This document shows, in pieces, positions 7,388 to 17,946 of a stretch of 64,000 nt of DNA. Position 1 is the stretch's first letter. The number at the start of each line of letters is the position of its first letter. Source of the stretch: a plasmid; assembly GCF_053078305.1 (NCBI RefSeq), contig NZ_CP166875.1. One strand, written 5' to 3'. The translations under genes and the position numbers were made by a program. A model generated the notes under the pieces. The model ran no database searches. It was not told the origin of the DNA and was given only the letters and a program-made list of their open reading frames with translations.

Positions 7388-7662
7388 CAGTATTCTGGCT
7401 GGAAGTCCTCAGTACACGCTCGTAAGCGGCCCTCACGGCCCGCTAACGCGGAGATACGCCCCGACTTCGGGTAAACCCTCGTCGGGACCACTCCGACCGC
7501 GCACATAAGCTCTATCATAGCTGACAGCGGGTATGGCTTTGCAGGGTGGGGATGGGTAAGGTGAAATCTATCAATCAGTACCGGCTTACGCCGGGCTTCG
7601 GCGGTTTTACTCCGGTATCACATGTAACCACAGCGTGCCGCCTTACATGCGCTGACGCGCAT
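7388..7662. repeat. ~270-bp repeat family, copy A (upstream of higBA-like module)
   Basis: Near-identical to 9269-9546; 3' third shared with 17870-17946. Confidence 0.85.
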
Positions 7663-7751
7663 AAACAACAAGTTGCTACATTAGCTTACAGGTTAATTCA
7701 CCTTGCATAAGATTAGCATATAGGTTAATGTTTATCGAAATGGGAGGTCAT

Positions 7752-8081
7752 ATGTTTAGCGTTGTTTATCACCCGGAAGCCAGGGAAGAAGCCACAGCAT
7801 TACCCATAAAAATCAGGGTGAAGTTTGACCGTCTCATCAGCAAACTGGAATATGACGCCCGATTACTGCGGGAACCGGATACAAAGCCCCTGGGGGATGG
7901 ACTTTTTGAGATCCGCACGATGGGGACGGACATAGCCAGAGGCATCTGGGTATACCACAAAGGCAATACCATCATCATGCTCCGGGTTTTCATCAAGAAG
8001 TCTCAGAAAACGCCAGCAAAAGAAATCGATCTCGCCAAAAAGCGGTTAGCGGAGGTACTTAATGAAACTGGTAAGCCATAA
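7752..8081 (+). CDS. type II toxin, RelE/HigB (Gp49-like) family
   Basis: Toxin-first operon; MFSVVYHPEAREEATALPIKIRVKFDRL...; overlaps downstream HTH gene. Confidence 0.65.
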   Translation: MFSVVYHPEAREEATALPIKIRVKFDRLISKLEYDARLLREPDTKPLGDGLFEIRTMGTDIARGIWVYHKGNTIIMLRVFIKKSQKTPAKEIDLAKKRLAEVLNETGKP

Positions 8082-8343
8082 AGAACTGCATAACGAGTGG
8101 ATGCAGGACGACGAATATCGCGCTGCATGGCAGGAAGAAGAACGTAAGGAGAAACTCAGGGAGTTGCTTGCAGAATGGCGTAAGCATGACAATTTGACAA
8201 AAGCGCAGGTTGCTGAACGCATGGGGGTTACTCCTCCTGTTATTTCCCGCCTGGAAAACAACATCACTAAAGCCAGCATCGACACCCTGACTCGCTATGC
8301 CCATGCGTGCGGTATCAAAAAACCTGTTATTACGCTGTACTGA
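8062..8343 (+). CDS. HTH (XRE-type) antitoxin, HigA-like
   Basis: 93 aa with helix-turn-helix TKAQVAERMGVTPPVISRLEN. Confidence 0.65.
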   Translation: MKLVSHKELHNEWMQDDEYRAAWQEEERKEKLRELLAEWRKHDNLTKAQVAERMGVTPPVISRLENNITKASIDTLTRYAHACGIKKPVITLY

Positions 8344-8531
8344 ACTCTGCTCTATGGCTGCCAGTTCTGGAGAAATCAGTAACTAAATTTTAATTAGCTA
8401 CGTTATGGTAAATCTGCCTGATGTGTCGATTTCTCTGAAAGTAATTCGGCTTCTGTGGGCTGCGTTTGCCTTGTGCCACCTGAATGTAATCACTATGATT
8501 AAATATGATTAACAACTAATCGGATATACAA

Positions 8532-8810
8532 ATGAAAAACAATACCGCACAGGCAACAAAAGTAATTACCGCGCATGTGCCATTACCTATGGCTGATAAA
8601 GTCGACCAGATGGCCGCCAGACTGGAACGCTCCCGGGGCTGGGTTATCAAACAGGCACTTTCTGCATGGCTTGCCCAGGAGGAGGAGCGTAATCGCCTGA
8701 CGCTGGAAGCCCTGGACGATGTGATATCCGGACAGATTATCGACCATCAGGCTGTACAGGCCTGGGCAGACAGCCTCAGTACTGACAATCCGTTACCGGT
8801 TCCACGCTGA
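8532..8810 (+). CDS. ribbon-helix-helix antitoxin (ParD/RelB-like)
   Basis: 92 aa; stop overlaps start of downstream toxin ORF (ATGA coupling at 8810). Confidence 0.6.
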   Translation: MKNNTAQATKVITAHVPLPMADKVDQMAARLERSRGWVIKQALSAWLAQEEERNRLTLEALDDVISGQIIDHQAVQAWADSLSTDNPLPVPR

Positions 8811-9085
8811 TGGAACTGAAGTGGACCAGTAAGGCGCTTTCTGATTTGGCGCGGTTATATGATTTTCTGGTGCTGGCCAGTAAACCTGCCGCCGCCAGAA
8901 TGGTACAGTCCCTGATACAGGCACCGGTCATTCTGTTAACTCATCCACGTATGGGAGAACAGTTGTTTCAGTTTGAACCCAGGGAGGTCAGACGGATTTT
9001 TGCTGGCGAGTACGAAATCCGTTACGAACTTAATGGGCTGCGTTTGGGAAACGTACAATATTGTACGGTTGCGCTATTGCGGTAG
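8810..9085 (+). CDS. ParE/RelE-family toxin
   Basis: 91 aa MELKWTSKALSDLARLYDFL...; C-terminus looks atypical. Confidence 0.55.
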   Translation: MELKWTSKALSDLARLYDFLVLASKPAAARMVQSLIQAPVILLTHPRMGEQLFQFEPREVRRIFAGEYEIRYELNGLRLGNVQYCTVALLR

Positions 9086-9232
9086 GGTGTACTCCAACGC
9101 TATACGGTATTTGGCAGACCTTTAGGGACATGAGATAACCTAAATGCAATAAGAGAAAAGCAATAACTTAAAGGCGATAGCTGATCACGATGAATCAATC
9201 AGTTACTTATCCGCATCGATTAAAAAATGCTC

Positions 9233-9268
9233 CTAACGTACAATAATTCCGTTTCCCAAACCGACCCC
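9233..9268. repeat. solo Tn3-type terminal inverted repeat (right-end orientation)
   Basis: CTAACGTACAATAATTCCGTTTCCCAAACCGACCCC; reverse complement GGGGTCGGTTTGGGAAACGG... resembles the IRs at 9667, 9819 and 15300. Confidence 0.45.
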
Positions 9269-15450: not shown

Positions 15451-15523
15451 TTGCGTAGATGTACAGAATTGTACGTTTTCGTACGGTTGGCCCTCAAACC
15501 CCATCCTTGAGTAGTGGCATAAG

Positions 15524-15553
15524 AAAACGGCTCCCTGTTGTGGAAGCCGTTAT
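15524..15553 (-). terminator. candidate rho-independent terminator downstream of the NUDIX gene
   Basis: Hairpin ACGGCTCC-loop-GGAAGCCGT followed by T-run on the minus strand. Confidence 0.45.
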
Positions 15554-15577
15554 CAGTTGCACGATTAGCATTGGAGT

Positions 15578-16003
15578 TTAAAGGATACCTTTCTGAGAAA
15601 ATGTGATCCGGGTTGCTTCATTTAAATCCATATATTTTAGGGTGTCAGGAGATGCCCAGACTATATCCTGAAACTCCTCATTAAATGTAACTGTACGGTT
15701 TGTACTGATACAGTCGAATATTAGGTAAATCATGTAAATGTCCTCGTGGGTACCATCCGGGTACGTTTTTGTACGGATATCATCACGAAAGGCCCAGGGT
15801 TTTACGTCAGTGATATGCAGTTCTTTTCCCAGTTCTTCCTTTATTTCACGCCTCAATGCTGTTTCCATAGTCTCTCCGGGTTCCATTCCTCCACCGGGCA
15901 GTGCCCATTGGCCCGGGAATACTCCGCGATCAGAGGCCATTTTACAAAGTAGAAACTCACCTTCATTTTGTATCACAGGGCACACTATTACTCTCTGGCG
16001 CAT
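15578..16003 (-). CDS. NUDIX hydrolase
   Basis: 141 aa with Nudix box [23 protein letters not shown]. Confidence 0.85.
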
Positions 16004-16004
16004 T

Positions 16005-16712
16005 TTATGTCCTCAACATCATGGCTTTTTGGATAACCTTATCAGAAAAATCATCAATGTCATCCGGGTGAGCACATACCATAATCCGCTCACGAAGGTG
16101 TAACGGAAGATTATCAGTAAAATGTTGATATTCCGCATGCCATCCTGTGATCCATTTTATCTTCATTTCCTCATCTGGAAATTCTTCAGGCCGTACACCA
16201 TGAATTTCATCATCATTGAGATGCATGAGTGAATGTGCGATGGGATAATTAATGAATGCTATAATGTCTGGCTCTGTAAGTAATTCATTTATTCTACTCC
16301 AGAGCACCATGTATGCATCATATTGTGCTTTATTTATATATTCGGACTTCAGCATGAAGTTGATAAAAATATAATCCTCAATATGGGATCTCTCCATAAT
16401 AAGGTTAAACCCTTTATCCAGCCAAGATTTTATCAGTAATGCCCGTTGTATCATAAAATTAAGCTGGATTAGATAACCGTAGTTACTGGTATCGTCAAAA
16501 AGGTAAGGAAGGAGAGTGTGGTGGACACTTTTTTCATCTATCGCGACAGTGTCTGGATCTACCTTAAATAACTCCTTTGACATGCGTCTCAGAAGAGTAC
16601 TTTTACCTACACCGGAATTACCCGACAGACATATATACAGAGGATTTCGAGTTTTATTCTTCTCTTTTTTATCTGCTGACCAAGGATCCATATACAAGTA
16701 ATTATATCTCAT
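16005..16712 (-). CDS. P-loop kinase, deoxynucleoside-kinase-like
   Basis: Walker [15 protein letters not shown] motif ([11 protein letters not shown]); start taken at ATG overlapping upstream stop (ATGA); ORF track extends to 16739. Confidence 0.7.
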
Positions 16713-17575
16713 ACTGTAAACTCCATTTTGTCCAACCAAAAGCGGTTGTTCTTACATTTTTGCATGATTTCATTATTTCCGAAAATTGCACTGATTATAT
16801 GATCTTGTGAATCTGTCAGCATATTTCCCAACAGAGTATAGTTTTCTCCATCAGGGATAATAATGTCAAAATTGGGTTCCATAACAACATTGGCTTTGTC
16901 CCGTTCTTCGAAAGTTGCCCAACTAATGGGCATGTTAGGGTGTTGTTTTTTTAGCATTACCATTTTCTCTTTAAATATATCCGTATTGATTTCCAGTTTA
17001 TCTCTTTTTTCTTTTCCGACTCCTAGAGGACAGAACTGGTAAAATCGCCAAGCTTGGATCTTATAGGGCAGAGAATCAACCCAGCAAACAATATCACTGA
17101 GATGATTAATGTTAGACTGAGATACGACGGTCGTGAGTTTTATATTAATTCGATTATTATTTTGGGGTAACCATGTTAATATATTTTTGATAACCCTGTG
17201 TTGGTTACTCATTTTATCACTGCGAATTTCTGAATTGACAAGACTGTCAATTCCATCAATTGGTATTCCTACCCAGTCTAACACCGGATTTAACCGAGCA
17301 TGATCCATAATAAATCGATGCCCGACCGTGGAGAGATATGTCATAAAACCCAGTTGCTTAGCGTATTCAATCAGATCAATGAAATCACTCCGGGATGTAG
17401 GTTCCCCTCCGGTAAAACCGATACGACGGAATCCCATTTTATACATCCGCTCAATTACATTACGAGCACTAGCAAGAGAAGAGTCCTGAATTCCAGGTGT
17501 ACGAAAACACTGATCACATCCTAGGTTACAATGTGAAGTTATTCTGAAATCTAAAAGAAGGGTGCTAATATCCAT
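16709..17575 (-). CDS. radical SAM enzyme, viperin-like
   Basis: CNLGCDQC (CxxxCxxC), GFTGGEP, and C-terminal WRFYQFCPLG resembling viperin WKVFQCL region. Confidence 0.75.
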   Translation of the reverse strand: MDISTLLLDFRITSHCNLGCDQCFRTPGIQDSSLASARNVIERMYKMGFRRIGFTGGEPTSRSDFIDLIEYAKQLGFMTYLSTVGHRFIMDHARLNPVLDWVGIPIDGIDSLVNSEIRSDKMSNQHRVIKNILTWLPQNNNRINIKLTTVVSQSNINHLSDIVCWVDSLPYKIQAWRFYQFCPLGVGKEKRDKLEINTDIFKEKMVMLKKQHPNMPISWATFEERDKANVVMEPNFDIIIPDGENYTLLGNMLTDSQDHIISAIFGNNEIMQKCKNNRFWLDKMEFTV

Positions 17576-17869
17576 AACAAGTCCTCTGACTATGATACAT
17601 CAATAACCATTAAAACATAATGGTTATTGCAGACCATGACAAAGCGCAACCTTCGGCTTACCAGGGATATAATATCTGCCAGTAATCAGAGCAGTGGGTT
17701 GCGCAAGGAACTCATGAATGATGAGTTCCGGTAATCGCATTACTGGAAGCCCATGATCGGAGGGACGCTATCAGTCACACCAGTGAAAATTGTGCACAGA
17801 AGCATTTTCATCACTGACAGGCCGTATGCCTCACAAGACGGGAGATAACTGGAGAATATTTAGTTCTTC

Positions 17870-17946
17870 TACCGGCTTACGCCGATTTTACTCCTGTGTT
17901 ATATGTAACCACTGTGTGCCACCTTCCATGCGCTGGTGCGGCATCA
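17870..17946. repeat. partial copy (3' ~80 bp) of the ~270-bp repeat family
   Basis: TACCGGCTTACGCC...ATGTAACCAC...GCCACCTTCCATGCGCTGGTGCGGCAT matches ends of copies A/B. Confidence 0.7.

Follow-up and report, generated by a model that had tools for sequence, protein, structure and literature searches.

What is a repeat of about 270 bp doing immediately upstream of three different toxin-antitoxin (TA) modules on one plasmid? The arrangement occurs in a 64,000-nucleotide stretch of plasmid contig NZ_CP166875.1 (assembly GCF_053078305.1), referred to here as the window. A first-pass annotation had suggested that a conserved part of the repeat could hold a promoter or operator or, alternatively, that it could be the junction of a cassette system that exchanges TA modules. 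We identify the repeat as the distal part of an IncFII basic replicon, known as repA4 and lying between a pair of Ter sites past the origin oriR and the first accessory gene. With good confidence we read it as the repA4 and probable G-site (primase start) segment, of which the second and third copies are relics brought in with TA genes, so that the locus is explained by the usual mosaic make-up of plasmids, with no need for a new cassette system.

The copies were located by repeat search and BLAST within the window, and the left extension of the third was traced by multiple alignment:

7387 to 7663, plus strand: copy A, the resident copy, part of the plasmid's own replicon (repA4 region; repeat search, BLAST)
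9269 to 9547, plus strand: copy B, an ectopic relic without Ter, ori or rep alongside (repeat search, BLAST)
17786 to 17946, plus strand: copy C, a divergent, left-truncated relic in which the CTG of both candidate primase starts is gone (alignment)

All three have the same orientation, and neither repeat search nor BLAST detected a further copy within the 64 kb. Their placement upstream of three TA modules was confirmed by both searches and by the alignment, and the downstream genes are those named before: a HigB-like toxin gene with a helix-turn-helix (HTH) partner after A, a truncated ribbon-helix-helix (RHH) antitoxin gene after B and stbD after C. The association holds for these three modules, but it does not extend to two other pairs of the same region, RHH/ParE' (8532-9035) and VapC/Phd-like (9876-10606), which have no upstream repeat. 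A and B had been described as near-identical. They are indeed copies of one repeat, but their identity is 93.9% over 279 columns (E 1e-119), and they derive from different lineages: A is a rare variant, matched by 4 plasmid records at ≥99% identity, and B is nearer to the common plasmid type. An origin of B as an in-situ duplicate of A was rejected, since the two are 6% apart and B is closer to the common plasmid type than to A. The recurrence of the 3' part noted upstream of stbD was borne out. BLAST aligned 17874-17944 at ~82% identity over 62-72 bp (E 1e-11 to 1e-12), while the multiple alignment showed clear homology at 17870-17946 and weak homology leftward to ~17786.

The identity of the repeat follows from the surroundings of copy A. 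The replicon is ordered CopA (minus strand), repA2, repA1 (stop at 6816), DnaA box, inverted Ter pair and copy A:

5784 to 5874, minus strand: CopA antisense RNA of the IncFII replicon (Rfam RF00042, 98.9 bits)
5959 to 6816, plus strand: repA1, IncFII replication initiator (from the list of open reading frames (ORFs); at the nucleotide level ~90% identical to the incFII repA genes annotated in the compared loci L002, L016 and L022)
6985 to 7172, plus strand: oriR, approximate, from sequence, with DnaA box TTATCCACA at 6991-6999
7222 to 7235, minus strand: Ter-consensus site, left of the inverted pair (GNRNGTTGTAACTA, 0 mismatches)
7357 to 7370, plus strand: Ter-consensus site, right of the pair, within the conserved module described below (consensus match to GNRNGTTGTAACTA)

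The extent given for oriR (188 bp) follows that of plasmid R1. The two Ter sites are the only consensus matches in the window, compared to 0.31 expected by chance, and as an inverted pair of predicted sites they would form a small fork trap just past oriR. Copy A begins 17 bp past the right Ter site and ~200 bp past oriR. In pEC958, repA4 with ter sites directly follows the RepFII origin, tir-pemIK comes next, and a transposon-insertion screen showed that repA4 is needed for maintenance of the plasmid (PMC4398462). The gene order repA1 - oriR - repA4 - stbD - stbE has been described for pEntH10407 (PMC2762410). It is because of the position of copy A after oriR and Ter, together with this published placement of repA4, that we assign the repeat to the distal repA4 segment.

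The segment is widespread: at least 5000 plasmid records contain a match of 90-95% identity, located at ~1430-1710 where the record starts at repA. A contig pattern scan of species-representative genomes for the repeat core returned 6 loci (L010-L015), all seemingly on plasmid contigs. These are short contigs in assemblies assigned to Streptomyces, Clostridiales, Lachnospiraceae, Sporosarcina and Collinsella, and where the contig allows comparison the 0.48-kb stretch from ori to repeat is 88-95% identical to the window. They almost certainly represent enterobacterial plasmid contamination or mis-binning. Coding of a small protein by the repeat, which carries annotations of a 'hypothetical protein' of 52-63 amino acids, was considered and rejected: variation is not concentrated at synonymous positions and the most conserved block is nearly invariant. 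Within the repeat, the Rfam search of the window gave no match at the gathering score, and the search of 7200-9700 gave none at E values up to 1.

What such a segment may do is suggested by its minus strand, the template for the leading strand when replication proceeds rightward from repA. The leading strand of R1 is reportedly primed by DnaG alone at a G4-like 'G site' located ~400 bp downstream of oriR (Masai and Arai 1989, JBC; Bernander et al. 1992, EMBO J); the assignment of a G site also draws on Jiang et al. 1993 (J Bacteriol). By its sequence, the repeat quite probably holds a G site, i.e. a G4-like priming signal, with two candidate starts:

7535 to 7546, minus strand: candidate start for primase, CCCTGCAAAGCC, which matches the start motif of G4 oric (CTGCAAAGCC) without a difference; its CTG is the complement of 7542-7544
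7576 to 7617, minus strand: long hairpin TACCGG...CCGGTA with GCGTAAGC, then a CTG (complement of 7576-7578) as second candidate start (single-stranded DNA fold, terminator scan)

The minus strand of copy A reads CCTGCAAAGCC, which is the same as the G4 primer start motif, and the common plasmid variant, CCTGCTAAGCC, equals the start motif of alpha3 and St-1. Local alignment of the minus strand with G4 oric landed on the start motif, and 12 of 500 shuffled sequences scored as high; the plus strand gave nothing comparable in this alignment. The TACCGG...CCGGTA hairpin is positioned thirty-odd bases further 5' on the template than the first start motif. In G4-type origins, hairpin I is typified by mini-hairpins of the GCGNNAGC form (PMC13037366). 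Counted from where oriR is estimated to end on the right, the candidate starts A7543 and A7577 follow after ~370 and ~405 bp. A blastn search of 50,697 phage records with the repeat returned no match, and what it has in common with G4-type origins is restricted to the start motif and the mini-hairpin. According to the mechanism proposed here, DnaB would unwind the DNA from oriR and host DnaG would then start the leading strand at the G site, using the minus strand as template.

If the repeat is a priming signal, its extra copies could be retained as working signals of the G type, which would speed complementary-strand synthesis in the conjugation recipient, provided that the minus strand is transferred. 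The common orientation of the three copies fits this idea, as does copy B, which keeps both CTG motifs, and the locations of traJ/FinP at 58.7 kb and of hok/sok at 54.1 kb would imply, along with what is known of the F plasmid, that the minus strand is indeed the one transferred. Nonetheless, we regard a conjugation role as very unlikely: neither CTG is left in copy C, truncation has removed much of many ectopic copies, and recombination by itself would also be expected to leave the copies in direct orientation.

The ectopic copies are better understood as remains of other replicons. Neither B nor C, which are 1.9 and 10.5 kb away from the resident copy, is adjoined by a rep gene or an origin, and neither has a Ter site. 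When nine ectopic copies were compared, their left ends fell at 7387, 7408, 7413, 7473, 7514, 7541, 7578, 7583 and ~7594 (coordinates of A), while their right ends all lay at 7654-7667, save that of the pFORC31.3 copy at 7632. Scattered left ends combined with near-constant right ends fit relics that are eroded from the rep side and anchored on the TA side, and do not fit a cassette site with fixed ends. Three features of the window document the joints of B and C:

9611 to 9666, plus strand: yacA-type RHH antitoxin gene, first 19 codons, ATG at 9611 (MAQVNMSLRIDAELKDAFM, the YacA N-terminus)
9667 to 9704, plus strand: Tn3-family 38-bp inverted repeat (IR) cutting yacA (GGGGTCAGCCTGGAATTCGGAAAATAAACCACGTTAAG)
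17693 to 17781, plus strand: 5' piece of a gene for a HigB/RelE-type toxin, disrupted by a frameshift and fused to C (tblastn; residues 13-45 of a Klebsiella plasmid toxin, two frames, 86% identity)

The joint of B with truncated yacA (9269-9668) recurs in at least 1426 plasmids with up to 97.8% identity, and at ~1430-1830 in records starting at repA. None of the best matches to it runs into the IR of the flanking miniature element (query positions 1-44). Likewise, the joint of C with stbDE was found in 331 plasmids, most matches starting at 17874, and it occupies ~1650-2090 in records starting at repA. A parallel fusion exists in pFORC31.3, where a truncated yacB is joined to a partial repeat. 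We propose that B and C came from other plasmids along with the adjoining TA genes (yacA..., stbDE) by recombination and Tn3-family activity, and that they would then have eroded from the rep side. Presumably, the TA-adjacent side has been preserved by selection against losing an addictive TA locus. Copy A would be the working copy of this plasmid. The repeat would accordingly mark former replicon ends and provide ~0.3 kb of portable homology for swapping TA modules, with no part in TA regulation.

Regulation of the TA genes had been the first suggestion for the conserved 3' segment, and it could take the form of a promoter or operator or of an intrinsic terminator by which transcripts reading through from repA/oriR would be kept off the TA promoter. 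The terminator scan indeed called a terminator-like hairpin followed by a T-run on the plus strand of A (7589-7603 plus GTTTTAC) and of B (9471-9485), and divergent copies retain the hairpin and the subsequent TTTTAC despite indels. However, no terminator was called in C, and the putative G site includes the hairpin just as well. The promoter scan detected no sigma-70-like site in the repeat copies. Moreover, the same segment precedes six unrelated TA families, including type I hok, as well as tir and a non-TA gene; being unchanged in all these settings, it cannot be an antitoxin operator. TA-specific palindromes are located in unique DNA past 7663, 9547 and 17946. Hence, the suggested promoter or operator is not upheld, and we consider a regulatory role for the segment unlikely, although the plus-strand hairpin may also stop read-through from the replicon. 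Promoter and RNA-structure prediction, as proposed in the first-pass annotation, thus yielded hairpins and a terminator-like site, but no sigma-70-like promoter, Rfam family or covariation.

Further insight into the repA4 segment came from comparison with replicons of other families, which defined a larger unit:

7293 to 7663, plus strand: conserved post-origin module, composed of the right Ter site and the repeat (86-92% identity with IncI-gamma/K1 and IncI2 replicons)

The stretch from 7280/7293 to 7663 is the sole blastn homology (86-92%) of the window replicon with IncI-gamma/K1 and IncI2 replicons, and of the Ter pair only the right site belongs to this common module. The module starts ~480 bp behind rep in all of them, even though BLASTP revealed no significant similarity of the compared IncI-gamma/K1 and IncI2 Rep proteins to IncFII RepA1. 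Against typed IncFII, IncI and IncK plasmids, A and B showed 86-97% identity over 370-390 bp and C 82% over ~72 bp. The IncF plasmid pSH696_117 and the IncI-gamma/K1 plasmid pE17.16 even have a sharply bounded block of 1007 bp in common (95.8%), comprising Ter, repeat and yacAB, with identical protein accessions for yacA and for yacB. An identity of 86-92% behind unrelated Rep proteins is beyond co-descent, and it must therefore be assumed from these sequences that the module has been exchanged between replicon families, at times with its TA neighbor. Host Tus would bind Ter and host DnaG would read the G site, with no need for the plasmid's own Rep. Being read by host proteins, a Ter plus G-site module would therefore work behind any origin, and such host dependence could account for its near-unchanged presence in IncFII, IncK, IncI-gamma/K1 and IncI2 plasmids.

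The right edge of the module is where the TA genes begin. Our context survey comprised 17 origin-adjacent copies (the window, L002, L003, L014, L016-L024 and L026-L029) and about nine ectopic ones. Across this plasmid superfamily, it is nearly always a TA locus that comes first behind the module: this applied to 15 of the 17 origin-adjacent copies, so that the repeat sits directly upstream of TA genes in most of the related plasmids sampled too. The two exceptions were a 294-amino-acid ORF without recognizable TA features and a transposase fragment. Six kinds of TA locus were encountered, namely yacAB, other RHH/ParE pairs, pemIK (after tir), stbDE, RelE/HTH (higBA-like) and hok (type I, in IncI2). 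The corresponding features of the window are:

7647 to 7662, no strand assigned: terminal hairpin ATGCGC-TGAC-GCGCAT, the last conserved element (alignments)
7752 to 8343, plus strand: RelE/HigB-like toxin gene (7752-8081) and HTH antitoxin gene (8062-8343), after A (PLSDB annotation of 93-95% identical copies; weak NCBIfam hits)
8532 to 9035, plus strand: RHH antitoxin gene (8532-8810; Pfam RHH_1, 1.9e-10) and ParE toxin gene truncated at ~9035 (ParE_toxin, 1.6e-11, model positions 1-71 of 89)
18060 to 18595, plus strand: stbD (Phd/YefM-type antitoxin; at 18060) and stbE (RelE-type toxin), after C (NCBIfam RelE_StbE above cut-off; annotation of relatives)

Two hok/sok loci (Rfam sok) and a pair of traJ 5' untranslated region and FinP are present as well, the three loci being at 4828-4984, 54116-54287 and 58753-58862; together with the type II loci, the window contains at least 7 TA loci or remnants.

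In every comparison, homology ended within a few bases of the terminal hairpin, and at least seven different sequences follow it. The hairpin is maintained: its arms in A, ATGCGC/GCGCAT, differ from the common form ATGCCGC-TGGC-GCGGCAT by a single-base deletion in each arm, which amounts to one compensated indel. In the simplest reading, the replicon ends functionally at position 7663, and TA loci are favored as its first cargo. TA loci are found as first cargo after other replicons too, as exemplified by parD of R1, pem of R100 and ccd of F.

A sharp junction shared by many different neighbors could also be produced by a dedicated cassette system, in which the repeat or its terminal hairpin is a recombination site for insertion or exchange of TA modules behind the origin, operated by a site-specific recombinase or arising as a hot spot because forks are arrested at Ter and the leading strand has its 5' end there. 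Beyond the seven or more sequences that meet the repeat at the same hairpin, this could explain the sharp-ended transfer of the module with yacAB between unrelated replicons, a 38-bp piece of the left hairpin that recurs just past the RHH/ParE module in L017 and L026, the contact of Tn3-family ends with the repeat at no fewer than three positions on the left and once on the right, and patches of copy A that are in common with a divergent Hafnia copy preceding the same higBA. However, ectopic copies have their left ends at varying positions between 7387 and ~7594, no repeat accompanies the RHH/ParE' and VapC/Phd-like pairs of the window, and no closing repeat follows higBA or stbDE. No integrase associated with the repeat was found, in a recombinase search that was not exhaustive, and a functional end of the replicon explains the sharp junction equally well. 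A Xer/dif-like or attC-like core at the terminal hairpin was rejected by eye, the best match to a XerC arm being 9/11 with a poor XerD arm. All in all, a dedicated system is quite improbable. What remains of the cassette idea is passive: portable homology, blocks moved between replicons and the patches shared with Hafnia support it in part, but variable left ends and the missing repeat on the far side do not fit a cassette junction.

An intermediate possibility, which we put forward tentatively and think rather doubtful, is that Ter and G site constitute a horizontally exchanged docking module, whose edges are hot spots for Tn3-family insertion and recombination due to fork arrest and the leading-strand 5' end, and that TA modules are shuffled at one fixed junction among IncF, IncK, IncI and IncI2 plasmids with unrelated Rep proteins. 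If so, TA modules would move alone or together with the module.

Returning to the repA4 and G-site assignment with relic copies, several points weigh against it. The observed 86-92% identity exceeds what selection on a few hairpins would give, and recurrent exchange of the module has to be assumed from sequence identity. The context survey is small, with its 17 origin-adjacent and about nine ectopic copies, and the sharp common right junction is accounted for by argument, i.e. by postulating a functional replicon end. Assignment of the G site is inferred and leans on earlier publications (Masai and Arai 1989; Bernander et al. 1992; Jiang et al. 1993). Two separate CTGs qualify as start, and resemblance to the phage origins as a whole is weak, reaching no significance against alpha3 or St-1. 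The single-stranded fold of the minus strand reached z = -1.5, with two or three hairpins predicted, compared to z = -5.0 for G4 oric. Finally, RNAalifold on 18 copies found compensatory base-pair changes in 0 of 20 pairs; covariation is lacking because the copies are too similar.

Tn3-family elements are found repeatedly at the edges of the relics. A Tn3-type IR had been noted to abut B, and this is correct, specifically for the left end of B (9231-9268), where the IR belongs to a miniature element:

9036 to 9268, no strand assigned: miniature element of 233 bp with a Tn3-family IR at either end, the right one (9231-9268, terminal CCCC at 9265-9268) abutting B (sequence)

Since the bases flanking its two ends differ, the element marks a recombinant joint and not a simple insertion. 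Relatives of it occur in 1669 plasmid records, including plasmids of 4-7 kb, and none is annotated. It has no ORF, is TIME-like and truncates the ParE toxin gene in the 8810-9035 interval. With the IR at 9667-9704 on the other side, B is bracketed by Tn3-family ends. IR-like ends of this family also occur left of the L017 copy, of the second copy in L016 and of a distant homologue upstream of ccdA (RepFIA), which along with B makes three junction positions, and a Hafnia plasmid carries a Tn3-type IR remnant at the right edge of the repeat. Tn3-family transposition seems to be a main agent of these rearrangements, and it may favor the region of fork arrest.

The DNA between B and C contains further structures of this kind. 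From 9667 to 15419 extends a nested Tn3-family structure with tnpR (11126-11719) and tnpA (11864-14902), which includes the solo IR at 9667-9704, inverted arms of 121 nucleotides (9737-9857 and 15299-15419) whose terminal GGGG points away from tnpR/tnpA, a 126-nucleotide direct repeat (10943-11068 and 14969-15094, 99%) and a 43-nucleotide palindromic repeat (10660-10702 and 15233-15275). The VapC(PIN)/Phd-like TA pair (9876-10606, minus strand) is inside this structure. Between the transposon and C, at 15578-17575 on the minus strand, an operon encodes NudI-like nucleoside triphosphatase, deoxynucleoside kinase-like and radical SAM proteins, named after the near-identical pFHI_NMBU_11_02. It is rare among plasmids and might serve nucleotide modification or defence. 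The 38-bp left hairpin of the repeat (CACGCTCGTAAGCGGCCCTGACGGCCCGCTAACGCGGA, 7413-7450 in the window) exists in stand-alone form at 37092-37129 and 21840-21878 of L017 and at 3252-3289 of L026. Besides its position just past RHH/ParE modules in these two plasmids, it is present ~800 bp upstream of ccdA in a RepFIA region, followed by a weak homologue of the whole repeat.

The element is a known segment of the replication region, and the plasmid, a mosaic of the typical sort, carries two relics of it besides the resident copy. Its recognition is of value mainly for annotation: a stretch that is unannotated or sometimes labeled 'hypothetical protein' in thousands of IncF and IncI resistance and virulence plasmids is to be read as part of the replication region, comprising Ter and the probable start site for primase. 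A copy found in isolation is a useful sign that replicons were once fused, and of the routes by which TA loci were acquired. A near-identical module behind unrelated Rep proteins, with TA genes next to it almost always, provides a tidy case of modular plasmid evolution, which leaves current understanding unchanged.

How does the locus compare to known systems? The repA4 regions of R100/NR1 and R1 have the same position after repA1, DnaA box and oriR and the same inverted Ter pair, and annotated IncFII replicons share ~90% nucleotide identity with the replicon of copy A. In R100-type plasmids, repA4 is followed by tir and pemIK, whereas a higBA-like pair follows here, and in contrast to R100/NR1 and R1 two further partial copies of the repeat are present without an adjoining origin. 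The putative G site resembles that of R1 in its distance from oriR (~370-405 bp here), its location on the leading-strand template, the CTG within a motif of the G4/alpha3/St-1 type and a GC-rich hairpin with a GCGNNAGC-type mini-hairpin. It differs from G4 oric by a much weaker predicted three-hairpin fold; unlike the R1 G site, copy C is devoid of the CTG. In parD (kis/kid) of R1, pemIK of R100, ccdAB of F and yacAB of IncI/K plasmids, a TA locus is likewise the first accessory function after the origin, but the point here is the shared non-coding segment before the TA genes and not these genes themselves. Integron attC cassettes and the pdif modules of Acinetobacter also display different TA modules behind a recurring sequence with a sharp junction. 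Here, however, no recombinase was seen in the non-exhaustive search, no site is present at both ends of a module and truncation is variable; in contrast to the recombination sites of those systems, the repeat of this plasmid is a replication element.

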